From NCBI RefSeq assembly GCF_963921235.1, contig NC_086108.1, positions 77,874,001 to 77,938,000 of the forward strand: a stretch of 64,000 nucleotides of DNA. Direction: 5' to 3'. Positions 13,279 through 61,920 of the stretch are shown piece by piece (positions within the stretch are counted from its first letter, which is position 1; every line of letters begins with the position of its first letter). Below the pieces are notes generated by a model, which saw nothing but the letters and a program-made list of their open reading frames with translations, ran no database searches and was not told the DNA's origin. The DNA is from Mobula hypostoma (lineage: Eukaryota). The position numbers were made by a program, and so were the translations under genes.

Positions 13279-16048
13279 TGTTGTGTATTTAAAGTTTCGG
13301 TTATATTTGAGTAATCTTTTATATTAAGTGTAACACTCAGCTCTATCAACCCACGTTCGTCTAGGGGAAACCGCCGTCTGCCCGCCAAACTGTGTCTCAC
13401 GTTTGCATAGATGCTGTGTATGCACCCCAGCACAAGCCCACAATGTAAAATATCAGTCAGTACACAATGTACGTTTAAACGATTACACTTTATAAATTCT
13501 ACTGTGACTATGAGGTTAGTAGAGAAACAAAAATATAAAATAAAAAGGCGCCAAGAATAGAGATTATACAGTTTGTGCACAACGTTGGAGTTCACGCAAT
13601 ATCCTCGGTCCACCATTCAATTTCTTCCGAACTCCACGACCTTCGGACTGGGACCAACCACAGTGGTCTACCAGAGCACTTCCCACACGTCCTCGCTCTT
13701 CGCTTCTCCTCACTGAACTTCCCGCGTACTCACTCAGGTTCCCACACATACAGATAGAATAACATAACTTCCATTGGTTAATTCCCCATTGTGTACAATT
13801 ATAACCCAAACACTTAAGCTACAACATACATTACCTCATCAGTTAACATTACAAAGAAGCCAATTAATTATAACACTTCAGAGAAGCCATTTTATTATTA
13901 GCAGTTAACAGTTAACATTACAGTTAATATTACTGAGAAACCTACATAAGCTTTTTGGTTCATTAAAATAATCCATTATGGGTTAAATGTACAAATACAT
14001 GAATTGCATATGTCATCACACTACCACGTGATATACGCGTGCCTTGCTTAAAATGAACGCAAAGTTTGGCCTGCATTCCCGGACACCTGCATCTTCCTTT
14101 GAATCAGATTTATGTTTTGAAGTTACGAAACATATCATTGGTGGTGAGGTATTTATAAAATGAACCTGAGATGGCTACCTACCCGTTGAAGCACAATGAG
14201 GCATTCAAATTTTTAAATAAGCACAGTAAGGAACAGTGAGTGAAAAGCACAGCTCAGCACATGTTCTTCAGAAAGGAAGACATGATCATTTTAAAAAAGT
14301 ATTAAAGAGAAGAATTCATGGGTTCATAAAGAGTGGGTACTGGGTAATAATAATAATAAATAAAAGCAGAAAAGGCTGGCTACGTCAGAAAGATCGACAA
14401 ATTTGATTACATAACAGGTAACTGGCTCATATATACTGGGCTAATTCAGCAATATTTTGAAGCAAGTGAAATATCCATTGAGAAATGAGTACCAATTTTG
14501 CAGAGTGCATTAGTTTTAAAGGCATACAGATTGCTTTGAAGTTTTACTGTTTCAAACAATTCAGCAAAAATGAGCTTTGCTGATATTGTCAGGAACTTTT
14601 AGGCCCAAGGCTATTGCTGATCGCAGATGGCTTTAGGTTTCAAAGTGGAATCAAAAATATGGGGAGCTCATTTCAGCGTATGTGGCTGAATTGAAGAGAT
14701 TGTCTGATCATTGTTAGTTTAGTAAAGGTCTTAATGATGGACTGAGAGATCATTTAGTTTATGGAATCTTACAAGAAAGCATTCAAAAATGGCTTGTAAA
14801 TAAAGCTCAACTTACATTTAAAAGAGCAGTTGAAATCACTGTTTCAATGGAAACTGCAGACAGAAACTCAATTGAGTTGCAGTCAGGAATGAAAATGAGT
14901 GTGAACAAAATTTAAATGTCTAACAGAAACCAGCCTTGCTGAACAAATTGTGTTACCACTGTGGCAGAGGCTCACATACACCAGACCAATGTAGGTTTAA
15001 AGGTGAAACTTACAGAAAGTGCAACAAAGTAGGTCATGCACAAAGAGCATGTCGGGCAGACAAAAATAAATGGTCTGCACAGGGAAGAGATAAATGTAAA
15101 AAGTCAAGTTGCAGGTTCCAAAAGCGTTCTAATCTGCAAGCTGTTGATGAACAATCTGCAAGCAACTAATAATGATGAGTGTGACACAGGACTGGCTAGC
15201 ATTAAGATTTACAATGTGAAAAATAACAATAGGCGAGCAATATGAGTTATACCATAAGTGAACAGCAAATTAATTAAAATGGAGTTAGACACTGGTTTGG
15301 CTGTTTCAGTCATTCCACAAAACAAGTTTGAGAAGCATTTCAAAAATATTAAACTGAAGCCTGCAGATATCCAACTAAGAACTTATACCAGAGAAAATAT
15401 GGGAATGACATTCAAACTGTGAAATACAACAACCAACAAGCTACATTGAGTTTGTATGTGTTAAAAACAGAAGGACCAGCATTGTAGGAAAGTGATTGGC
15501 TGAGACAACTATAACTTGATTGGCGATCCATCCACTATTTGCATGCCACATCCCCTGCGATGAAGTCAATGGAAAGCGAATTAAGAAAGGTACTGGATGA
15601 TGCCGCAGTAGCTTTGAAGGATGCATTGGAAAGCTCAGGCATATAAAGGGTAAAATTGTGTTAGATGAAAATGCCCCACCCATGTTTTGCAGGACATTTC
15701 GGTTCATTACACCATCCGTGATAAAGTAGCCAGTGAGCTAGATCACAAGGAGGCTGAAGGAATTCTTTTGAAGGCTAAGTTGGGCCAATGGGCAATATCA
15801 GTGGTCCCAGTAGCCAAGAAGAATAGATCGCTCAGGATCTGTGGTGATTTTAAAGACACCAACAATCCATTACTGAAAGTAGATCAATACCCCCTACCCA
15901 GGAAGAGGGTATCTTTGCCTTTCTGGAGGAAAACACTTCAGCAAAACATACCCAGTGGAGGCCTACTTGCAAATAGATATAGAAAAAGAGTCCAAAGTAT
16001 TTCTCACCATTAAAAACTCGCAGAGGGCTTTATCGCTATAATAGGCCT
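13279..16048 (+). mobile_element. Mag-like Gypsy LTR retrotransposon, 5' half (5' LTR 13279-14137, PBS, gag, protease, start of RT)
   Basis: TG...CA LTR homologous to 38051-38279; PBS-like ttggtggtgagg at 14138; double knuckle CYHCGRGSH..C / CNKVGHAQRAC; LRICGDFK...DQYPLP. Confidence 0.88.
13329..13946. mobile_element. Solo LTR inserted inside another LTR
   Basis: TGTAAC...CCTACA termini, 4-bp TSD taag (13325-13328/13947-13950); host LTR rejoins across it. Confidence 0.8.
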
Positions 16049-32824: not shown

Positions 32825-33030
32825 TCACGCGAAGAGAGACATTAGAACATTAGTTACAACTGGAAAGCTGGAAGGAAAAAGAAGCAGAGGCTGACAGAGA
32901 ATGAAAATGATAGATGGAATAACATCATGGTTAGAAACAGAGGAGGCAACAACTACAATTCAGAGGGTCAGGGACCGTGACGGATGGAGATAGACACACC
33001 GAACGGCAAGGCATCTGAATGATGATGAGG
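32825..33030 (+). mobile_element. RTE LINE 3' end
   Basis: GKLEGKRSRG motif; (TGA)n tail; near-identical to 42660-42834. Confidence 0.75.
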
Positions 33031-33859
33031 ATTGTTCTGATTGCATGTTGTGCAGTCTACTCATTTCAGAGGATTCAATTTCTGTGGATATATTAATTCC
33101 ATTCAGTCGGTGGAAATGCAAGAATCGAGTAATTTCACTCTTAACTTGAATCAAGCTAGATCAACTCAAAAGATTAAGTCCGGTAAAAATGATCTTAGAA
33201 CATTTAAAAATTTGTGTTTATTTCAGAAAGCAGTAAATGTGTTCACCTCTGAATGAGAGAGAGTGTGTGTGCATGTTTATTTATCTTTTCCTCTTTGCTA
33301 AGCACACACATGCACACACACTCTCTCATGTGAAATTATGGCTCAATACACTAGTTCCTTGTAATTTCTGATTTTGTGCTGTAAGCCCCAACAGACATGA
33401 TAATTTGAGAAGCAAAGACCATGAAAATTCACAGACAGCAGAAACTGAATTCTGACCTTTGATTATTCCAGCACCAAACCTGTGCATGCTTAAAGAAGAG
33501 CATCTCTATTTCACGGGATCAGCAGCCATCAATGGCAATATGGAGATAATTCCTATTTAATAGGGCCAAACAAAGTTTTAAAATTTTTTAAATGATCCTA
33601 TTTTTCTTTGAAAGCCCAATGGTTTTTCATTCATGACTTCAAGGAATCCACTTGCAATTAACCTTTTCTGTGTTCTGGCTTTCAGGAATACGTACTTCCT
33701 GTTTTAGCAGGAGATATGTATGTTTGCAGCCCAGAGAATACTTTGCAATAGACTTTATTAACCCTTGACAACATTGGCTTTGTGAGAGGTTGACAGATAT
33801 TATGTATTTATAATCTGACAAGGAACCTCCAAGGTCAACAGAAGCAAACTTTACCAATT

Positions 33860-34998
33860 CCCTTCCTCCACCATCAACTCTGCTCTCAAACGCATCTCTC
33901 CCATTTCACGCACATCTGCTCTCACCCCATCCTCCTGCCACCCCAGTAGGAATAGGATTCCCCTTGTCCTCACCTCCCATCCCACCAGCCTCCAGATCCA
34001 ACATATAATTCTCCGTAACTTCTGTCACCTCCAACAGAATCCCACCACCAAGCACATCTTTCCCTCCCCCTCCCCCTGCTTTCCGCAGGGATCACTCCCT
34101 ACGCAACTCCCTTGTTCATTCGTCCCCCCCATCTCTTCCCACTGATCTCCCTCCCGACACTTATCCTTGTAAGCGGAACAAGTGCGACACATGCCCTTAC
34201 ACTTCCTCCCTCACCACCTTCAGTGCCCCAGACTGTCCTTCCAGGTGAGGCGACACTTCACCTGTGAGTTGGCTGGGGTGATATACTGTGTCCGGTGCTC
34301 CCGTTGCGGCCTTCTATATATTGCCGAGACCCGACGCAGGCTGGGAGACCGTTTCACTGAACACTTATGCTCTGTCTGCCAGAGGAAGCAGGATCTCCCA
34401 GTGGCCACACATTTTAATTCCATGTCTCATTCCCATCTTCATATGTCTATCCACAGCCTCCTCTACTGTCAAGATGAAGCCACACTCAGGTTGGAGGAAT
34501 AACACCTTATATTCCATCTGGGTAGCCTCCAACCTGATGGCATGAACATTGACTTCTCTAACTTCTGTTAATGCCCCACCTCCCCTTCGTGCCCTATCTG
34601 TTATTTATTTGCTATTATTAATTTTTTCTCTCTCTCTCCTTTTTCTCCCTCTGTCCTTCTCACTATACTCCTTGCCCATCCTCTGGGCTTCCCCCCTCCC
34701 CCTTTCTTTCTCCCTAGGCCTCCCGTCCCATGAACCTCTCATATCCCTTTTGCCAATCAACTGTCCAGCTCTTGGCTCCATCCCTCCCCCTCCTGTCTTC
34801 TCCTATCATTTTGGATCTCCCCCTCCCACTCCCACTTTCAAATTTCTTACTATCTCTTCTTTCAGTTAGTCCTGACGAAGGGTCTCGGCCCGAAATGTCG
34901 ACTGTATCTCTTCCTAGAGATGCTGTCTGGCCTGCTGATTTCAACAGCAATTTTGATGTGTGTTGCTTGAAATTCCAGCATCTGCAGATTTCCTCGTG
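33860..34998 (+). mobile_element. 5'-truncated Penelope-like element (GIY-YIG end plus terminal repeat)
   Basis: GVIYCVRCSRCGLLYIAETRRRL; perfect 10-bp TSD tttaccaatt (33850-33859/34999-35008). Confidence 0.92.
34868..34903 (+). ncRNA. Minimal hammerhead ribozyme motif (PLE type)
   Basis: agtc-CTGACGA-agggtctcggccc-GAAA-tg-TC-gact; stem I agtc/gact; stem III palindrome mutated to ATGT. Confidence 0.7.
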
Positions 34999-37531: not shown

Positions 37532-40117
37532 GTTGGAAGTTCTGTGCACAACCTACAACCTTTGTTAAATATTCACAGTATAATTAGCATTGCATTGCTC
37601 TAGCCTGTTGTATGTGTGTTTACTTAGAGAGACACTCTGCTGTCGTAAGGAGACCAGACTGTATCGTCTCAATAGGCTGCTTGAACAAAGTTCCAGAGTT
37701 CACGGAATGTACACAAACTGTTTTTTTCAATAAGAACTATAGGCAACAGTGACAATGATGATCAGAGTAATCTCAACCAAATGGTAAAATAAACCACATT
37801 TCTTGCTAGAGTAGTTATGCAAAATCTTTATAGGCACAGTGGTATCACGAATATAGTTTTGGATAATTTATCACTATGCCAGCACCTCTGAGAGATGTAT
37901 CTCCCAAACTGCTGTTCACAGTGACAGTGGAAGTACAGCCAAACAATTGAATTGTACACAGAAGAGTTCATATGCTTTGATTTCAGTGCAGTCAGAATGG
38001 AACTGTGATTTACAGGGACTCTGGTGATACAGAAAATAAAGGGTTAATTGTGTTGTGTATTTAATATTTGAATAATTTTGTATATAAATTGTTTGTGTAA
38101 GTATTCTTGTTAATTTACTTACAGGTTATATGTAAAAATACGTTAACTGCATACATCATCACGCTACCACATGATATGTGTGTGCCTCACTGAAAATAAA
38201 CTCTAAGTTAGACTGGCATTTCAGACTCCCTTGTCCTCATTTGAATTAGTTTAATGTTTTAAGATTACAAAACTTAACATTGGCGACAAGTTATTTTCAA
38301 AACGAACCCGAGACCTTCAAGCAGAGTGAGGTGCTCGTACTAAAAAAAGCACAGCGTGTAAAATACGCAGCCCAACACATGTAGAGACTTTGAGATAACA
38401 AAACAAAGAGACTGCAAATGGAAGAATTCATGGTTTATAAAGAGTGAGTACTGGTTAGTAATAATCAATTTAAAAATCAGAAATGGCTAGCTAGATCAAA
38501 AAGATGGATGAATTTGATTACATAACGAGTAATTGGCTCATATACACTGAGCTATTGGAACAGTATTTTGAAGCAAATGAATGAGCCAATGAGAAGCGAG
38601 TGCCAATTTTGCTAAGTGCGTTGGGTTTAAAGGCATACAGTTGGCTTCGAAGCTTGACTGGTCCAACCAAACCTGCAGAAGTGAGCTTTGATATTGTAAA
38701 ATTGATTCAGGAACACTTAGAATCGAAGCCAATTGTTCATTGCAGAAGGGTTTCGATTTCATAAGCAGAATCAAAAGGAAGGGGAGTCTATTTCAGTGTA
38801 CGTGACTGAATTGAAGAGGTGGTCTGAGCATTGTGAGTTTGGTAATGGTCTTAATGATACACTAAGAGGTTGTTTAGATTGTGGAATTTTACAAAAAAGA
38901 ATTCAAAAAGAGCAGCTAACTGAAGCACAGCTGACATTTAAAAGAGCAGTTGAAATCCCTGTATCAATGGAAACCTCAGGCAGAAATACAACTGCGTTGC
39001 AGTTAGGAATGAAAGTGAGCGTGAACAAAATTGCATTGTCTAAACAGAAACCAGCCTGGCTGAACAATTTGTGTTATCATTGTAGTGGGGGCTCACATAC
39101 ACCAAACATAAGCAGGTTTAAAGGTGAAATTTGCAATAAATGCAACAAACTGGGACTCATACAAAGAGTGTGTCAGGCAGGCAAAAATAAATGGACTGCT
39201 CAGGGAAGAGAAAAAGCTAAAAAGGCAAGTTGCGGTTTCAAAAAGCTACTAATCTGTATCTCGGTGTCAGTGCTGTGCAATTGCTCAACAAAAGGAGGTG
39301 TAAGGCGCTTCTTCCGTCCGATAGCCTACAAGTCACCCTTGGGCAAGGTGTAGTACCTGTTTAGCCTCCCAGTCAGGGTCATGTGAAGCCATGGTTTGCA
39401 GGTGGAGGATGGTTTTACAAGCAGATTCTACAATTGGAATTTATGGTTGTAAAAGTAAAAACGCTGGGAAGATGAATCTGCTGATCAAATGGCTAGCAGG
39501 GCTGGACTTTAGGCAGGGCTAGGCTGGGCTGCAGTCCAGGGGCCTGAGTTTCAGAGAGGCCCAAAATAGGTAGCTATCATCATGGTGGACAAAAAAAATA
39601 CAAAAGTGGAGCACAGAAAAGAAAAAAGAAAGGAGAAAAAGAGGACCGTGAGAAAGAAGCATTAAAAAAGACATTGAAATTGATAGCGCGAACACGAGGA
39701 AATCTGCAGACGCTAGAAATTCAAGCAACTTTTATGTGTGTTGATGGAAATTGACAGATTTTTTTAAAACCTGTTCTTGATGATGCAGCAGTACCATCGC
39801 TCTTGTCACAGTCTGAGACCGGTGGACAGATGGAGACTTGTTCAACAGCTAGCGCTAGCACTAGCGTTAGCACAGGACCACCATCCTTGCCACAGTCAGC
39901 AGCTAACGTTAAGAGGCAGAGAGCATGACTTTGGGATTCCCGACCACAGAGGCCTCCGAACAACCAAGTCGGGTCACCATTAATGTTAACGTTACCGCTA
40001 CTGAGGATCCTTACAGCACTGATCCTGCTCGCTGGGGAAAGGAAATGTTAGATGATTCAGTCCGAGCATACTGGGCTAAGAAAGGGCCGGATTCCTGCCA
40101 GAATAAGGATGTGGATA

Positions 40118-40480
40118 TTCGATTAGATTATGAGAACACTCAGTCCTCTTTTATTGTCATTTAGAAATGCATACATGCATTAAGAAATGATACAATGTTT
40201 CTCCGGAGTGATATCACAGAAAACAGGACAAACCAAAGACTAACACTGACAGAACCACATAATTATAACATATAGTTATAGCAGTGTAAAGCAATACCAT
40301 AATTTGATGAAGAACAAACCATGGGCATGGTAAAAAAAGTCTCAAAAGTCCCCGAGTCAATCCCTGATAGCAGGCGGCAAAAGGGAGAAACTCCCTGCCA
40401 TAAAACCCCCAGGCACCGTCAACTTGCCGATGCCTTGGAAGCAGCCAGCCACAGCTGACACTGAGTCCATCCGTATCAAA
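40118..40480 (-). mobile_element. LINE-type (Rex-like) 3' fragment inserted in the hAT
   Basis: Minus-strand tail 'aatgacaataaaagaggactgagtg...taatctaatc'. Confidence 0.5.
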
Positions 40481-40988
40481 GCTTTGGAACAAGTATACAA
40501 ACAGCGGAGATGTTTTTTCTCCAAATTTCACTTCAAATGCTAGCTCGTAAATGGTGAGTACATATCAAGGCAATGACTCTTATATTCCCCTTCCACCGGC
40601 ATTGCATTCTTCAGCACTTTGAAAGTGCAAGTGTTGCATTGCAAGCTGTAAATCTAGACCTGTATAATGCTGTATACTTGGTGAGATCACTACAGGGATA
40701 TATAGCAAGCTTCCGTGATCAATTTGATACTTTTGAGACCCAGGCTAAAACTATGTCTCCAACAGTCTCACAAGTGTACAAAGAAGACACCCAACGAAAA
40801 AGAAAACGTAAGGCCTTCCTGGGTGAATCCACAACACCTGATGTTGGCTTGTCAGCCAGAGAAAACTTTTCAGCTACTGTTTTTTTTTGGTCATGATGGA
40901 TAGATTACTTGCAGAAATTGATTGCAGATTTGCATCATATAATGACCTTAACAACACATTTGGCATCCTAAACAATATCCCTTCTCTC

Positions 40989-41491
40989 TAGGTTTGCCAA
41001 CTGTCCCATATTTGCTGGGACATCCCGTATATTGGGCTAAATTGGTTTGTCCCATACGGGACAGCCCTTGTCCCGTATTTCCCCCGCTAAGGTAGAGCAT
41101 TCCTATGAAAACTTTTGTGCGGAAATGGCATAAAGCGAAGAAGCAATTACCATTAATTTATATGGGAAAAATTTTTGAGCGTTCCCAGACCCAAAAAATT
41201 ACTTACCAAATTATACCAAATAACACATAAAACCTAAAATAACACTAATATATAGTAAAAGCAGGAATGATATGATAAATACACAGCCTATATAAAATAG
41301 AAATAATGTAAGTACAGTGTAGTCGGGAAGATTAAACCAAAACCGATTTGTGGGGAAAAAATTGGCACGTACATGCATGCGCACACAAGTGCCCGCGCAA
41401 GGCTTCGCAGTCATGATCGTCTTTCACAAGTGTCCCGTATTTGACTACTACTTTTGTTCCTTATTTGGGAGTGAGAAAGTTAGCAACTCTA
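40989..41491. mobile_element. hAT MITE
   Basis: TIRs taggtttgccaact / agttagcaactcta; perfect 8-bp TSD cttctctc. Confidence 0.88.
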
Positions 41492-43290
41492 CTTCTCTCT
41501 CTGATCTCCAAAGCAGATATTCAGCTGACCTGGAGTTAGACTTTGTGGAGGAGGTTGTCCATTTCAGGGAATTTGTAAGTGGCAAATATATTTCATCCGC
41601 AACAGGGCTTTTATGCTTCCTCAGAGAAAAAAAACTTGCAGGTCATCTTCCCAAATTTAAGCATTGCTTTGAGGCTTTACCTGACTCTCCCTGTCACAAG
41701 TGCAAGTGGTGAGCAATCTTTCGCCAAGCTCAAGCTGGTGAAGAATAGGCTTAGATCCACAATGGGACAGGACAGGCTGAATCATCTTACTCTGATGTCA
41801 CTTGAAAGTGATCTTGTTCAGAAACTGGATTTTAGTGATCTGATCAAGGACTTTGCGGCGAAGAAATCCAGAGGAACTAGGCTTAATTTTGAAAAACAAG
41901 CATCTGACTTTGTAAATATCTAGGCTTGTGTGTCAGTGCTGTTCCTGTTTTTGTGGCAATATGCTAATAGTTGACTGTTCACAAACCTAGTAAGTAATAA
42001 GTGGTCTTTACTCTGCAAGCCACACAGCACAGCAATAGGTTAGTATGTGCTAGATCTCATTTTTCAAAAAGATTGTTGAGTATCGTCAAGCTTCCTAGTT
42101 TGCCATAGTGCCATCTCTCTTGGCCTTTTTGTCTCTCATTTCCATATTAGAACACACGGTTGAGAAAAATACCTAGATAAAAATGCTTTGGCATTGTTTG
42201 AGAAATAAGGCCTATGGTATGTGCGGCAATAGCTAAATAAAGATTTAAGATTGGGTACATCATACTTTGTCTCCCTCATAACTTTACTAAGCCAACTAAG
42301 CCTAGGTCGATTTTTGAGTGCTTTAGATGCTGTCCTTCAAACTAAGAATCTGCATTACTTTTTGTCCTCCCTCTTAAGGCCTGCAAGTTTATAGCCTACG
42401 TATTGTACTAAACCAATGCCTTGGTCCACAGCTTTGATATTTAGACCGGTATGACCTTTGCTCTTGTTCTTGCATTTTTTTGCTTGATACAGCAGCATTT
42501 TAGGGTGTCGGCAGGGGCCCATCAGGGCCTCCAGCCCAGGGGCCCTGACCCCATTAAATCTGGCCCTGATGGCCAGGGTTACCCATCCAGTATGGACGCT
42601 GCAACTGAACAAGGCAATGGGAAACCACTTCAGTATTCCTCCCTTGTACAATAATGAACTACAACTGGAAAGCTGGAAGGAAAAAGAAGCAGAGGCTGAC
42701 AGAGAATGAAAATGATAGATGGAATAATATCATGGTTAGAAACAGGGGAGGCAACAACTACCATTCAGAGGATCAGGAACCGTGATGGATGGAGAGACAT
42801 GATCACCCATGCCGAACGGCAAGGCACCTGAATGAATCTGCACGCTGTTGATGAAAAATCTGATCATGGTGAAATACAGGAGTATGTAGCCTTGAGATTT
42901 ATAGTGTAAAAATTAGCAATCGACAAGCAATATGACTAATGCCAGAAGTGAACGGCAAATTAATTAAAATGGAATTGGGCACGGATTAAGCTGGTTCAAT
43001 CTTTTCACAAAATGAGTTTGAACAGAATTTCAAAGATACTAAACTGAAGCCTGCAGATATCCAACTACAAACTTATTCTAGAGAAAAGATAACTCCTGTG
43101 CGAATGACACAGTGAAGTGCAACAACCGTCAAGCCACATTGAGCTTGTACGAGGTAAAAACAGGAGGACTAGCATTGTGGGAGGTTGATTGGCTGAAACA
43201 ACAACAACTTGATTGGAGAACCATTCACCATTTGCATCCCCTGCAATGAAGCCAACTGAAAGCAAAGTAAGAAATGTACTGTATGATGCC

Positions 43291-43898
43291 ACAACTGTTT
43301 CCACACCAAACACCCTGAGCATTGTTCAACAGAGGGAAAACTGGCATTGGTACCAGCCTTTGTGGCTACTGGTTGGAAAGCTTATTGACCAAGGAAGGAC
43401 TGTGCTGCTCAGAGGAATATTGAGTGACAAAAGCAGTGGTCCAAATACAACAGCTTTTGTAGGCAAAGTATCTGAGAAGACTTCTGATATGTTAATTAGG
43501 CAGTTACTTGTGAAATACGGCTTGGTGTTAAGCTGGAAGCAAATTCAAGGAGCTTCAAGGAAGTTACCAGTATTCGGCTTTTGTGAGTAGAAAGATCCAG
43601 AACCTACTCTGCGTGCATTAAGGTTATTGCATGAACCTCAAGTGGGAGGCAAAAAGCTGCTTGTCAAAGTAGATGCAAAGACCAAAGCCTTGCTGGATGA
43701 ATGGAAGGCCAAAAGGAAAGGAGTCAATGGAGATATGAAAACAGAGGATTTGTCAGATGACATTGTGGATGAGGAAACCAAGAGGAGAGATCAGATTGTA
43801 AAGGCAGCAATAGAAGAATTAAGAAGAGAATACTCCAGTGAACTAAATGCATCTCCCCAAGATCAAGATGCACAAATTAGAAGAAGAAAAAGAAAGAA
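43291..43898 (+). pseudogene. RBM25: Processed fragment of RNA-binding protein 25 (RRM and following charged region)
   Basis: GPNTTAFVGKVSEKTSDMLIRQLLVKYGLVLSWKQIQGASRKLPVFGFCE*KDPEPTLRALRLLHEPQVGGKKLLVKVDAKTKALLDEWKAK...DEETKRRDQIVKAAIEELRREYSSELNA matches recalled vertebrate RBM25; no introns; in-frame stop at 43588-43590. Confidence 0.92.
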
Positions 43899-44649
43899 CG
43901 GTGTCCAGAGCTGTCAGAACCACTTCCGACAGTCTCAGAGTCAACTCCTACCTCCTACAACCACCACAGAGGAGGCCCCAGAACTGGAGATTGTTTCACA
44001 GCCACAAGTCTCACCTGTCACCCAGAGTGATCCCCTTTGCCTGGGAAGACGTAATCCCACAGGAGTAGGAAATCCTCCACAGGCCTGAATGGAGCAAATT
44101 AAACTTACGATGTCTATATACAATAGGTGTATGAAATAATATAGTGTGTATACAGTTGAAGAGCATTCATTTATAGCTAAGCAGGGAGGAGCATTTTATA
44201 TTTAACATTTCAAAAGTAGTTGAGTAACCTTGTATATGAATTTGTTGATTAAGTATTCTTGTTCATTTAAATAATTAATTATGGGTTGTATGTAAAAACA
44301 CGTTAATTGCATACATCATCACACTACCATGTGATACATGCATACCTTGCAGAAAATAAACTCAAAGTTAAACCGCCTTTTCAGACTCTCGTCTTCATTT
44401 GAATTAGTTTAATGTTTCGAAGTTACAAAACATAACAAATTGGAACTCGTGCATAAAACGCAAAGACATTTCACAAAACGTGCACAGAATGTGCAGCCAG
44501 CATCAATTCCAAATCGGCCACTTTATTATTAGTATCTACTGTAACTGAGCAGGCTCTTCCCAGTGTGCTTGTACTAAAGATTTTCTATATCCAGCTGACT
44601 CCTGTGACCCATAACCACGGGAGTGAGCTGAAGTAAGAAATAAAACTTC

Positions 44650-58370: not shown

Positions 58371-59395
58371 TATATTTTCATTGCAATTTATAGTTTTTTA
58401 TTATTATGTATTGCAATGAACTGCTGCTGCAAAACAACAAATTTCAGGACATATACCAATGATATTAAACCTGATTCTACTTCTGATTCAATGTCACAGT
58501 GGTTAAGTGCGGGGTGGGGATTGGGGGGGAAGTCTGTAGTACAATCCCATCACAGTGATTACACCTTTCTTATTTTTGAGTTCTACCCATACAGACTCCG
58601 GATGAGCCTCTATTGTGTCCCCTCTGAGTGCAACTGTGATATTGCCCTGAACAATAGTGCACTTTCCCCAGCTCTTTTTACCTCCTTCTCTATCATTCCT
58701 AAAATATTGAAACCCTGGAATATTAAGCACACATTCCTGTCTCAACCAAGTCTCTTTTATGGCCACAACATCATAGTCCCATGTACCGATACATATTCGA
58801 AGTTCATCATCCTTGCCCAGTTTAAGAGACTACTAGACAGGTATATGGAGGAATTTAAGGTGGGGGCTTATATGGGAGGCAGGGTTTGAGGGTCGGCACA
58901 ACATTGTGGACCGAAGGGCCTGTACTGTGCTGTACTATTCTATGTTCTATGTTCTGTTATAATACTCCTAGCATTAAATTACACACTTCAACCTGACAAT
59001 CTCTTTGTGTTTATTACCTTGCTCTTGCCTGTTTTTACTGCTTATGACATCTACATTCCTCTAAATTCCTCCACTTTCTAAACTGGAACCAGATTAATTT
59101 AAACTCTCATGAGTAGCATTACCAAACCTCCTAGCAAGGATATTGGATTAAGGTGTAACTTGGCCCTTTTGTAGAGATCAGCTCTGCCCTAGAAGAGGTT
59201 CCAATGATTCAAAAACCCAAACCTCTTCCCCCGTGCCAGTTCTTCAGCCACCCCATTCATCTATTCTGTATTTCTATTCCTGCATGGACAAGCATGTGAC
59301 ATTGGGAGTAATCCAGAGATGACTATTTTCAAGAAACATACATCAAAGTTGCTGGTGAACGCAGCAGGCCAAGCAGCATCTATAGGAAGAGGCGC

Positions 59396-59431
59396 AGTCG
59401 ACGTTTCAGGCCGAGACCCTTCGTCAGGACT
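59396..59431 (-). ncRNA. Minimal hammerhead ribozyme motif, intact
   Basis: Minus strand agtc-CTGACGA-agggtctcggcct-GAAA-CG-TC-gact: core, stems I and II, palindromic ACGT stem III, GUC cleavage triplet. Confidence 0.8.
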
Positions 59432-59726
59432 AACTGAAGGAAGAGTGAGTAAGGGATTTGAAAGTTGGAGGGGGAGGGGGAGATCCAAAATGATAGGAGA
59501 AGACAGGAGGGGGAGGGATGGAGCCAAGAGCTGGACAGGTGATAGGCAAAAGGGGATACGAGAGGATCATGGGACAGGAGGTCTGGGAAGAAAGACAAGG
59601 AGGGGGGTGACCCAGAGGATGGGCAAGAGGTATATTCAGAGGGACAGAGGGAGAAAAAGGAGAGTGAGAGAAAGAATGTGTGCATAAAAATGAGTAACAG
59701 ATGGGGTACGAGGGGGAGGTGGGGCC

Positions 59727-61920
59727 TTAGCGGAAGTTAGAGAAGTCAATGTTCATGCCATCAGGTTGGAGGCTACCCAGACGGAATATAAGGTGTTGTT
59801 CCTCCAACCTGAGTGTGGCTTCATCTTTACAGTAGAGGAGGCCGTGGATAGACATGTCAGAATGGGAATGGGATGTGGAATTAAAATGTGTGGCCACTGG
59901 GAGATCCTGCTTTCTCTGGCGGACAGAGCGTAGATGTTCAGCAAAGCGGTCTCCCAGTCTGCGTCGGGTCTCACCAATATATAAAAGGCCACATCGGGAG
60001 CACCGGACGCAGTATATCACCCCAGTCGACTCACAGGTGAAGTGATGCCTCACCTGGAAGGACTGTTTGGGGCCCTGAATGGTGGTAAGGGAGGAAGTGT
60101 AAGGGCATGTGTAGCACTTGTTCCGCTTACACGGATAAGTGTCAGGAGGGAGATCAGTGGGGAGGGATGGGGGGGACGAATGGACAAGGGAGTTGTGTAG
60201 GGAGCGATCCCTGCGGAATGCAGAGAGAGGAGGGAGGGAAAGATGTGCTTAGTGGTGGGATCCCGTTGGAGGTGGCGGAAGTTACGGAGAATAATATGTT
60301 GGACCCGGAGGCTGGTGGGGTGGTAGGTGAGGACCAGGGGAACCCTATTCCTAGTGGGGTGGTGGGAGGATGGAGTGAGAGCAGATGTACGTGAAATGGG
60401 GGAGATGCATTTAAGAGCAGAGTTGATAGTGGAGGAAGGGAAGCCCCTTTCTTTAAAAAATGAAGACATCTCCCTCGTCCTAGAATGAAAAGCCTCATCC
60501 TGAGAGCAGATGCGGCGGAGACGGAGGAATTGCAAGAAGGGGATGGCGTTTTTGCAAGAGACAGGGTGAGAAGAGGAATAGTCCAGATAGCTGTGAGAGT
60601 CAGTAGGCTTATAGTAGACATCAGTGGATAAGCTGTCTCCAGAGACAGAGACAGAAAGATCTAGAAAGGGGAGGGAGGTGTCGGAAATGGACCAGGTAAA
60701 CTTGAGGGCAGGGTGAAAGTTGGAGGCAAAGTTAATAAAGTCAACGAGTTCTGCATGCGTGCAGGAAGCAGCGCCAATGCAGTCGTCGATGTAGCGAAGG
60801 AAAAGTGGGGGACAGATACCAGAATAGGCACGGAACATAGATTGTTCCACAAACCCAACAAAAAGGCAGGCATAGCTAGGACCCATACGGGTGCCCATAG
60901 CTACACCTTTAGTTTGGAGGAAATGGGAGGAGCCAAAGGAGAAATTATTAAGAGTAAGGACTAATTCCGCTAGACGGAGCAGAGTGGTGGTAGAGGGGAA
61001 CTGATTAGGTCTGGAATCCAAAAAGAAGCGTAGAGCTTTGAGACCTTCCTGATGGGGGATGGAAGTATATAAGGACTGGACATCCATGGTGAAAATAAAG
61101 CGGTGGGGGCCAGGGAACTTAAAATCATCGAAAAGTTTAAGAGCGTGAGAAGTGTCACGAACATAGGTCGGAAGGGATTGAACAAGGGGTGATAAAACAG
61201 TGTCGAGGTATGCAGAAACGAGTTCGGTGGGGCAGGAGCAAGCTGAGACAATAGGTCGGCCAGGACAGGCAGGTTTGTGGATCTTGGGTAGGAGGTAGAA
61301 ACGGGAAGTGCGGGGTGTGGGAACTATAAGGTTGGTAGCAGTGGATGGGAGATCCCCTGAGCGGATAAAGTCGGTGATAGTGTGGGAGACAATGGCCTGG
61401 TGCTCCTTAGTGGGGTCACGATCGAGGGGTAAATAAGAGGAGGTATCCGCGAGTTGTTGCTGTGCCTCGGCAAGGTAGAGGTCAGTACGCCAGACTACAA
61501 CAGCACCCCCCTTATCAACGGGTTTAATAATAAGGTTAGGATTAGTGCGGAGGGAGTGGAGAGCAGAACGTTCCGAAGGAGTGAGGTTGGAATGGGGACA
61601 AGGTGCGGTGAAGTCGAGACGGTTGATGTCCCGTCGGCAGTTGGCAATAAAGAGATCCAGAGCAGGCAGAAGACCAGAGCGGGGTGTCCATGAAGAAGAG
61701 GAGGGTTGAAGACGGGAGAAGGGGTCATCGGTGGGGGTGGAAGAGTCCTTGCCGAAGAAGTAGGCTCGGAGACGGAGACGGCGGAAGAAAAGTTCCGCAT
61801 CATGGCGAACACGGAACTCGCTGAGGTGTGGGCGAAGGGGGACAAAGGTGAGGCCCTTACTGAGAACAGAGCGTTCTGCCTCCGACAGTTGAAGGTCGGA
61901 GGGGGTGGTAAAGATCCGGC
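59727..61920 (-). pseudogene. Penelope RT-GIY-YIG ORF, apparently one frameshift near 60230
   Basis: ORFs 60050-61087 and 59727-60053; the RT frame continues upstream through FYLLPKIHK. Confidence 0.85.

Follow-up and report, generated by a model that had tools for sequence, protein, structure and literature searches.

Based on the sequence comparisons reported here, we suggest that the element at positions 38051-44437 of the window (the whole 64,000-nucleotide stretch of Mobula hypostoma DNA that was analysed) belongs to a family founded by a hybrid, which very probably arose once, through two template switches to co-packaged RBM25 mRNA, and would then have been spread in trans by pol-bearing sister copies. 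The window copy itself is an old, decayed Ty3/gypsy LTR element with an AATTG target duplication at both ends. It is a dead member of a large subfamily whose RT-RNase H-integrase region has given way to spliced RBM25 sequence. The Ty3/gypsy label of the parent family is probable and follows from domain order; BEL/Pao has the same pol order as gypsy. The parts of the window copy, and a sister copy in the same window, are as follows:

13279..16048, + strand: pol-bearing sister copy with an interrupted 5' LTR, gag, protease and the beginning of RT, truncated after that
38046..38050, + strand: left target-site duplication AATTG, from the flank letters
38051..38279, + strand: 5' LTR (TG...CA), aligning at 78% with the 3' LTR, K2P 0.19 over 212 aligned nt
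38281..38290, + strand: PBS-like site starting with TGG, at the same position in other copies
38420..39256, + strand: degenerate gag region that includes a Cys/His knuckle-like stretch and matches 13981-15136 of the sister copy at 75%; ORF 38721-39353; without Pfam match
42835..43286, + strand: decayed protease region, from position and homology (76% to sister copy 15131-15607); without Pfam match
43287..43293, + strand: 5' switch point, 7-nt microhomology TGCCACA common to element pol and the RBM25 exon end, in frame with pol
43287..43895, + strand: spliced RBM25 cassette covering the RRM, 524/615 identical to spliced host exons, which have GT-AG borders; RRM_1 match
to 43296, + strand: last 10 nt of one RBM25 exon (this and the next two lines from alignment to host exons)
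43297-43343, + strand: 48-nt alternative RBM25 exon
43344-43512, 43513-43570, 43571-43731 and 43732-43895, + strand: further RBM25 exons
43890..43899, + strand: 3' switch region with the 9-nt purine microhomology of the family junction; internal deletion just upstream in the window copy
43899..44179, + strand: element-derived tail (end of the integrase region and 3' UTR), also in pol-bearing sisters
44180..44191, + strand: polypurine tract, recurring in other copies
44192..44437, + strand: 3' LTR, from alignment to the 5' LTR; first two bases not TG in the window copy
44438..44442, + strand: right target-site duplication AATTG, from the flank letters

Both LTRs, the PBS, the PPT and the AATTG duplication had been named in a preliminary description of this DNA, and all are present, the PBS as a putative site. 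Paired LTRs with TG...CA ends and a target duplication within the 4-6 bp range of such elements are found, with the 3' LTR of the window copy having lost its TG start, and the TGG motif 3' of the 5' LTR and the purine tract 5' of the 3' LTR are conserved among copies. The same description of 38051..44437 made no mention of later insertions: a 3.6 kb stack of later nested insertions (39257-42834), more than half of the called interval, interrupts the element:

39257..42834, unstranded: outer later insertion, probably a non-LTR-like repeat, flanked by the 6-bp duplication AATCTG and ending 3' in GAAT repeats; 42660-42835 is 89% to window 32855-33022
39497..42568, + strand: hAT transposon remnant within the outer insertion, with short terminal inverted repeats, an 8-bp duplication (7/8 matching) and Dimer_Tnp_hAT (E 5e-11) at 41579-41920
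40989..41491, unstranded: MITE-like element within the hAT remnant, with the 8-bp duplication CTTCTCTC and 84% to a copy in locus L116

Outside this stack, the window copy is colinear with the in-window sister over 38124-39256 and 42835-43293, and the two diverge at 15607/43293, in agreement with the switch previously placed at about 43290. No RT, RNase H or integrase was found by Pfam in six frames of 38280-39259 (gag) and 42835-44192 (protease, cassette and tail), in line with the earlier statement that RT, RNase H and the integrase core are absent; the same search gave only RRM_1 and one sub-threshold low-complexity match. Between the two points at which cassette copies leave and rejoin element sequence, sister L063 carries, in the order typical of gypsy, RVT_1, RT_RNaseH, Integrase_H2C2 and rve, while Pfam detects only weaker RVT_1 and rve matches in sister L072. 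Because L063 has the full domain set there, pol has been replaced rather than interrupted, and approximately 2.5 kb of RT-RNase H-integrase is missing from the cassette copies between two points that flank pol in the sisters.

The best match of the cassette is RBM25 (E 2e-59), as first proposed, and nearly all of the 120 matches listed carry an RBM25-type name; a PDB sequence search with 43591-43899 gave no match. The host RBM25 gene was located with the C-terminal part of fish RBM25; a PWI-family search as a route to this gene returned other genes. Compared with the single host gene, the cassette (43287-43895) is 85% identical and intron-free. According to the exon coordinates, it crosses five exon junctions, with 18,570 nt of host introns absent, which bears out the idea of a spliced source. 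The sense, intron-free RRM piece earlier placed at 43291-43898 is thus confirmed in kind, but it starts at 43287, its first 7 nt being common to element and RBM25. In the host gene, AG/GT borders flank the 48-nt exon, which is also present in the annotated shark RBM25 isoform P0122. At 6/7 sites where the host and P0122 differ, the copies carry the host residue. The donor was RBM25 of the host's own lineage, and a horizontal origin of the piece from a distant fish was rejected by this residue comparison. Neither a poly(A) nor a target-site duplication of its own was seen at the RBM25 piece of the window copy, in line with the preliminary description. The latter also reported ORFs 43213-43590 and 43627-44088 in a frame broken by one TAG; the TAG is present, but this understated the decay because there are also four frame-shifting indels within 43320-43422, over which ORF 43213-43590 is therefore open by accident.

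Microhomology with the pol-bearing sisters, which had been put forward as a check, amounts to 7 nt at the 5' switch and 9 nt at the 3' switch, and its chance at random switch points, with one pol copy as the reference, is 7.7e-4 (5') and about 4e-5 (3'). The 7-mer TGCCACA is kept in 10/20 pol-bearing copies. Among 99 fetched loci, none reaches 5' of host position 155, and the long copies stop at approximately position 1233. This one shared pair of outer junctions likely reflects a single origin of the hybrid. The founding capture was likely longer than the window cassette, at about 1,072 nt with eight exon junctions: eight are crossed in long copies compared with five in the window copy, and the family 3' junction sits in a later RBM25 exon than the end of the window cassette. 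The window copy is a form shortened by deletion, and while the element tail does begin at about 43899 as described, the 3' end of the cassette is a secondary deletion product rather than the original switch. For the short form, a deletion running from exon D as far as the E/F junction was considered, and 33/35 short copies fit the corresponding probe better; it was dropped since the same bases occur in several long copies in which exon E is retained. Because the 3' microhomology is purine-rich and recurs inside the cassette, separate switch-backs from one long intermediate are not fully separable from later deletions.

A search for copies with the same junctions and different target duplications had been proposed, and such copies were found. 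Three 24-mer junction patterns (≤3 mismatches) have 1,407, 1,224 and 1,020 genome matches, of which the 1,407 may include some pol-type copies since 1/20 pol-type copies matched that pattern; the reversed controls gave 0, 8 and 0. The matches lie in both orientations (714/693, 610/614 and 532/488) on dozens of contigs. The pol-type junction pattern has 2,690 matches compared with 1,020-1,407 for the cassette type. Contemporary pol-bearing sisters are present, and in two copies RT parts occur together with cassette parts. Target duplications could be scored in 32 of 100 copies: 15 have at least 4/5 matching flank bases (2.8% in mismatched pairings) and all 15 differ, while 17/32 lack a clear duplication. 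The median LTR-LTR K2P is 0.19 (27 pairs, range 0.12-0.285), the copy-copy distance is 0.18, and subfamilies differ by at most 4 diagnostic sites per region. These values point to amplification in a single burst. The cassette was also found in sequencing runs of six other organisms, on their contigs. In organism B, one contig spans 44409-44700 with 6 differences and has 29 letters on the LTR side, below the bridging rule, and thus only hints at an orthologous insertion. Family contigs also occur in two runs guessed to be RNA; as they could equally be DNA runs, they do not count as evidence of expression. Neither an active copy nor an RNA intermediate was observed.

In the proposed mechanism, reverse transcriptase would have left the element RNA for a co-packaged RBM25 mRNA at a short shared sequence, copied about 1,072 nt across eight exon junctions, and returned at a second short shared sequence. 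The resulting hybrid would have retained the LTRs, PBS, PPT and gag-PR and would, therefore, have been packageable and copyable by autonomous copies. Long, middle and short forms, the window copy being among the short ones, would have been generated within a single burst by deletions between repeats rich in purines. The double template switch to a chimeric non-autonomous element, as originally envisaged, thus gains support from the spliced exons, the microhomology and the amplification; template switching and trans-mobilisation are themselves inferred. None of the three outcomes named beforehand as contradicting this reading occurred: the piece is neither confined to one exon nor intronic, it carries no tail or duplication of its own, and its best matches are RBM25.

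The earlier suggestion of an amplified RRM cassette holds for the amplification, but a functional cassette is unsupported because inserted copies evolve neutrally. In the 80 copies sampled, a small part of those in the genome, pN/pS is 0.88-0.90 and none is free of stops and frameshifts; copies decay neutrally after insertion. Shared differences from the host comprise 21 synonymous and 3 non-synonymous changes. The 21 exceed the synonymous changes of a single copy, which number roughly 14, so that the reading frame of the founder may have been under some selection; the subfamily-diagnostic sites are too few for a branch selection test. Could a Gag-protease-RBM25 fusion have aided the element, its RRM or RE-rich part serving RNA binding, packaging, export or splicing control, and hence have come to make up about one-quarter of the family? 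At the 5' junction the pol reading frame continues into the cassette, although such a join has a one-in-three chance, and a higher one in repeats with codon periodicity. The commonest short form is the full capture minus 450 nt, i.e. whole codons. In the sampled copies deletions drop the RE-rich part and keep the RRM, but samples were picked with RRM-side sequence, which biases RRM retention. Differences from the host common to copies are almost all synonymous, but host purifying selection alone would give this pattern, and the one shared site that can be polarised changed on the host branch. Given also the neutrality of inserted copies, we consider this explanation quite improbable, and the most likely role of the RBM25 piece is that of a passenger. 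There is a small chance that an in-frame fusion was selected during family activity, so that a vertebrate retrotransposon out-copied its parent by means of a captured splicing-factor RRM, or that the host has kept an unexamined copy as an RRM gene or as a regulatory RNA acting on RBM25.

An RBM25 processed pseudogene made by a LINE, inserted into or recombined at the DNA level with a gypsy copy and then amplified, is very unlikely. Repeats that we take from their sequence to be LINE-like are abundant in the window, and DNA-level microhomology repair could likewise leave short shared sequences. The cassette, however, lacks a poly(A) and a target-site duplication, both its ends lie inside the coding region, and the 2.5 kb of pol that it replaces is bounded exactly by two microhomologies. 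Moreover, a search with the C-terminal 231 residues of RBM25 matched host exons only and no 3' retrocopy (4 matches among 13 candidates). Segmental duplication or an assembly artefact might be thought to underlie the many matches, given that locus L101 has a tandem duplication of protease and cassette; against this, dozens of contigs bear matches, in either orientation, copies differ from one another by about 18%, and the cassette is present on contigs of other organisms. The distinct target duplications at LTR ends refute it, leaving it practically no probability.

LTR-mediated retrocopies have been described in animals by Tan et al. 2016 (Genome Res, PMC5131818), so that the mechanism is already published. 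In the portion of that paper considered here, as in the window family, part of the internal ORF is replaced by a doubly truncated mRNA piece without poly(A) or its own target duplication and with both LTRs kept, and microsimilarity at switch points has a median of 6 bp, compared with 7 and 9 nt here. The same portion suggests that such loci behave as non-autonomous elements and reports only two retrocopies that occupy multiple insertion sites (18 sites across nine retrocopies). By contrast, one capture here gave rise to a family that numbers >1,000 copies by count, differs in its target duplications from copy to copy, includes nested deletion forms and occurs in several organisms. In crocodilians, CrocERV31-nectin3 and CrocERV29-KIT ligand are ERV captures (Chong et al. 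2014, PMC4299795) that likewise represent vertebrate LTR lineages carrying host mRNA in multiple copies across related species, and nectin3 replaces an element gene in CrocERV31 as RBM25 replaces pol here. These are retroviruses for which six and nine copies are reported, with intact ORFs under purifying selection, whereas the window family has a Ty3/gypsy carrier, lost pol, neutral copies and a more than hundredfold higher copy number. Maize Bs1 and human HERV-K/FAM8A1 are also LTR elements with spliced host sequence. As summarised in the same portion of Tan et al. 2016 (PMC5131818), Bs1 combines parts from three genes and is said to encode a protein, and HERV-K/FAM8A1 is described as a single case yielding a processed pseudogene, both unlike the window family. 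No RBM25-carrying retrotransposon family is reported in the titles or opening abstract lines of the papers listed by the literature searches, and RBM25 is absent from the main text of a 244-genome vertebrate retrocopy preprint (10.64898/2026.06.26.734816), the supplements of which may list the family. For cartilaginous fishes, this preprint gives MIPOL1, SUDS3, SDF2L1, SLU7 and ZNF276 as leading retrocopy parents. Thus, the mechanism of LTR-borne capture is known, while the scale (>1,000 copies) was not found in these sources and is unusually large.

Tan et al. proposed, on the basis of a few insertion sites, that one LTR-mediated retrocopy may grow into a mobile family; this is seen here at scale, with a host piece in about a quarter of junction-counted copies (1,020 compared with 2,690, recall differing between patterns). 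Together, the cassette copies preserve an old RBM25 isoform including the alternative exon, and they therefore date its splicing pattern. Insertions common to species could act as phylogenetic markers, and for these genomes the RBM25-like pieces, which run into the thousands, can mislead gene annotation, the counting of retrocopies and the mapping of reads.

The LTR element carrying the RBM25 cassette is delimited by a 5' LTR followed by a TGG-starting site and a 3' LTR preceded by a purine tract, an arrangement also found in other copies. Both LTRs and the AATTG duplication of the preliminary description are confirmed, with a K2P distance of 0.19 between the two LTRs. Features are as follows.

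38051-44437, whole element, between two AATTG copies
38051-38279, 5' LTR
44192-44437, 3' LTR (mutual alignment of the LTRs, 78%)
39257-42834, later insertions stacked at three levels, each with its own target duplication
within 39257-42834, outer repeat, non-LTR-like, with a 6-bp duplication
39497-42568, hAT remnant with a Pfam hAT dimerisation domain
40989-41491, MITE, innermost level of the nested stack

Once the later insertions are subtracted, the element is ~2.8 kb long. As described earlier, it is colinear with the sister copy at 13279-16048, across gag and protease, and we place the divergence at 43293. The 5' LTR of the sister (13279-14137) is interrupted by an insertion of ~620 nt. 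Another common repeat lies within the nested stack at ~40117-40474. Elsewhere in the window, inverted ~1.1-kb repeat copies at 33858-34972 and 59327-60442 (identity 90%) are the least decayed of its long repeat pairs.

The claim that the cassette is intron-free RBM25 held up. In a protein search, its read-through translation hits RBM25 (best E 2e-59), and 43287-43895 aligned to the joined exons of host RBM25, which is confined to one locus (G000:C1:99.79-99.84 Mb), is identical at 524 of 615 positions. The cassette comprises a 10-nt exon end, a 48-nt alternative exon, three complete exons and the greater part of another. AG/GT borders flank each of the eight host exons inspected, and host introns totalling 18,570 nt are missing. 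Judged by this alignment, the cassette is host RBM25 in spliced form. The 48-nt exon, which is in frame in the host gene (G000:C1:99832586-99832633, in L042), is shared with the annotated shark RBM25 isoform P0122 and was not found among the 12 fish and frog proteins displayed; the hybrid family has fixed this isoform. At six of seven positions where host and P0122 differ, the copies mostly have the host residue, and the donor therefore belonged to the host's own lineage; at the seventh they have the P0122 residue, and thus the host changed there after capture. From this, the host is probably a cartilaginous fish. The stop reported in a long open frame is present, but the frame is partly accidental because the window copy carries one stop and four frame-shifting indels.

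That RBM25 stands in place of the pol core is likewise supported. Of 20 pol-bearing sisters fetched, two were scanned for domains: L063 has, in order, RT, RNase H, integrase zinc-binding and integrase core domains, while L072 has weaker RT and integrase matches. The tail that follows the cassette also occurs in pol-bearing copies; in those that have lost the least sequence it lies ~2.5 kb past the start of RT. The cassette thus replaces pol. The sisters (L062-L081) are often internally deleted, with ~0.9 to 3.3 kb from RT start to tail; the family is therefore generally deletion-prone.

Hybrid copies are numerous. A cassette search gave 2,877 first-look candidates, and all 40 scored were matches. 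Counted with three 24-nt patterns at up to 3 mismatches, the element-mRNA junction has 1,407 matches (control 0), an exon-exon junction 1,224 (control 8) and the first exon-exon junction 1,020 (control 0); the corresponding pol-type sequence has 2,690. Among 20 pol-type copies, one hit the 1,407-match pattern and none the 1,020-match pattern. Because only 10 of 20 copies chosen by the 5' junction fit the exon-exon pattern, these counts suggest roughly 2,400 hybrid copies in the genome. In 100 copies (99 fetched and that of the window), both LTR ends could be located in 32; flanks match at at least 4 of 5 bases in 15 of these (7 perfectly) vs 2.8% in mismatched pairings. All 15 target duplications differ from each other and, therefore, the copies are independent integrations, bearing out the proposed amplification with identical junctions and different target duplications. 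Contigs of four other organisms (B, C, D, E) cover the cassette in large numbers, and contigs of two further organisms (F, G) bridge the 5' junction.

Very probably, the hybrid arose by two template switches of reverse transcriptase, first onto an RBM25 mRNA and then back onto element RNA. In this model, RBM25 mRNA would be spliced and packaged together with element RNA, and reverse transcriptase would leave the element RNA at one short shared sequence and go back to it at another. The hybrid would retain all cis signals and be copied in trans. The proposed check for junction microhomology gave 7 nt common to element and host at the 5' switch (exact in 10 of 20 sisters), with looser similarity over ~12 further bases, and 9 purine-rich nt at the 3' switch; the chance of such lengths at random switch points is 7.7e-4 and ~4e-5, respectively. 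Set beside these joins, a LINE-made RBM25 pseudogene that entered the element is highly improbable, and a duplication artefact, set beside the distinct target duplications, is scarcely credible. RT and cassette parts are mixed in two copies, which fits a putative recombination of co-packaged parent and hybrid RNAs. L201:3093-5410 (oriented; G000:C62:54.82 Mb) runs through protease, RT and RNase H, jumps back to the protease end and continues into a full-length cassette free of the usual internal deletion; it looks like a recombinant of pol-bearing and hybrid RNAs. L196:2506-5300 (oriented; G000:C59:35.09 Mb) has ~720 nt of RT-region sequence within the gag of a cassette copy. In L101:3979-5614 (oriented; G000:C96:22.42 Mb), protease and cassette are partially duplicated in tandem.

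It is also very unlikely that a fusion protein was useful to the element. The pol frame is preserved at the 5' join and lost at the 3' join. Among the 80 of 100 copies spanning at least 90% of the tested region (median identity to host RBM25 86.8%), none lacks both stops and frameshifts, and pN/pS on non-shared changes is 0.88 (0.90 with CpG excluded). Most copies differ from the host at 24 sites, 21 of them synonymous. The simplest reading of this excess is purifying selection on the host gene since capture, with which one polarised site agrees. Because the 21 shared synonymous differences somewhat exceed the ~14 synonymous changes per copy, the founder may briefly have been under selection.

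None of the 99 fetched loci reaches sequence upstream of the shared cassette start. Long copies have three additional exon junctions and a common end at host position ~1233, directly followed by the element tail. From this shared start and common end, the founding piece was likely ~1,072 nt with eight junctions. Thus, there was probably a single capture, trimmed afterwards, and the window copy belongs to the short class. Length was measurable in 82 of 100 copies (44 short, 11 middle, 4 intermediate and 23 long), a sample picked via searches whose class counts are not genome proportions. Distances are ~0.17-0.24 throughout, whether copies are compared within a class, across classes or with pol-bearing copies; groups are separated by no more than 4 diagnostic sites in any region, and the median LTR-LTR K2P distance is 0.19 (27 pairs). 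These data fit a single old burst in which hybrid and parent spread alongside each other.

The window element shows all features tested of the LTR-mediated retrocopies described in Tan et al. 2016 (PMC5131818), where such loci are suggested as possible non-autonomous elements. For crocodilian ERV captures, PMC4299795 gives six and nine copies with intact ORFs. In titles and abstract openings of the RBM25-specific and general literature we found no description of an RBM25-carrying family, and the main text of a vertebrate retrocopy preprint does not name RBM25. The feature is real and belongs to a known kind of LTR-mediated gene capture; what stands out is the scale of the family and its preserved deletion series.
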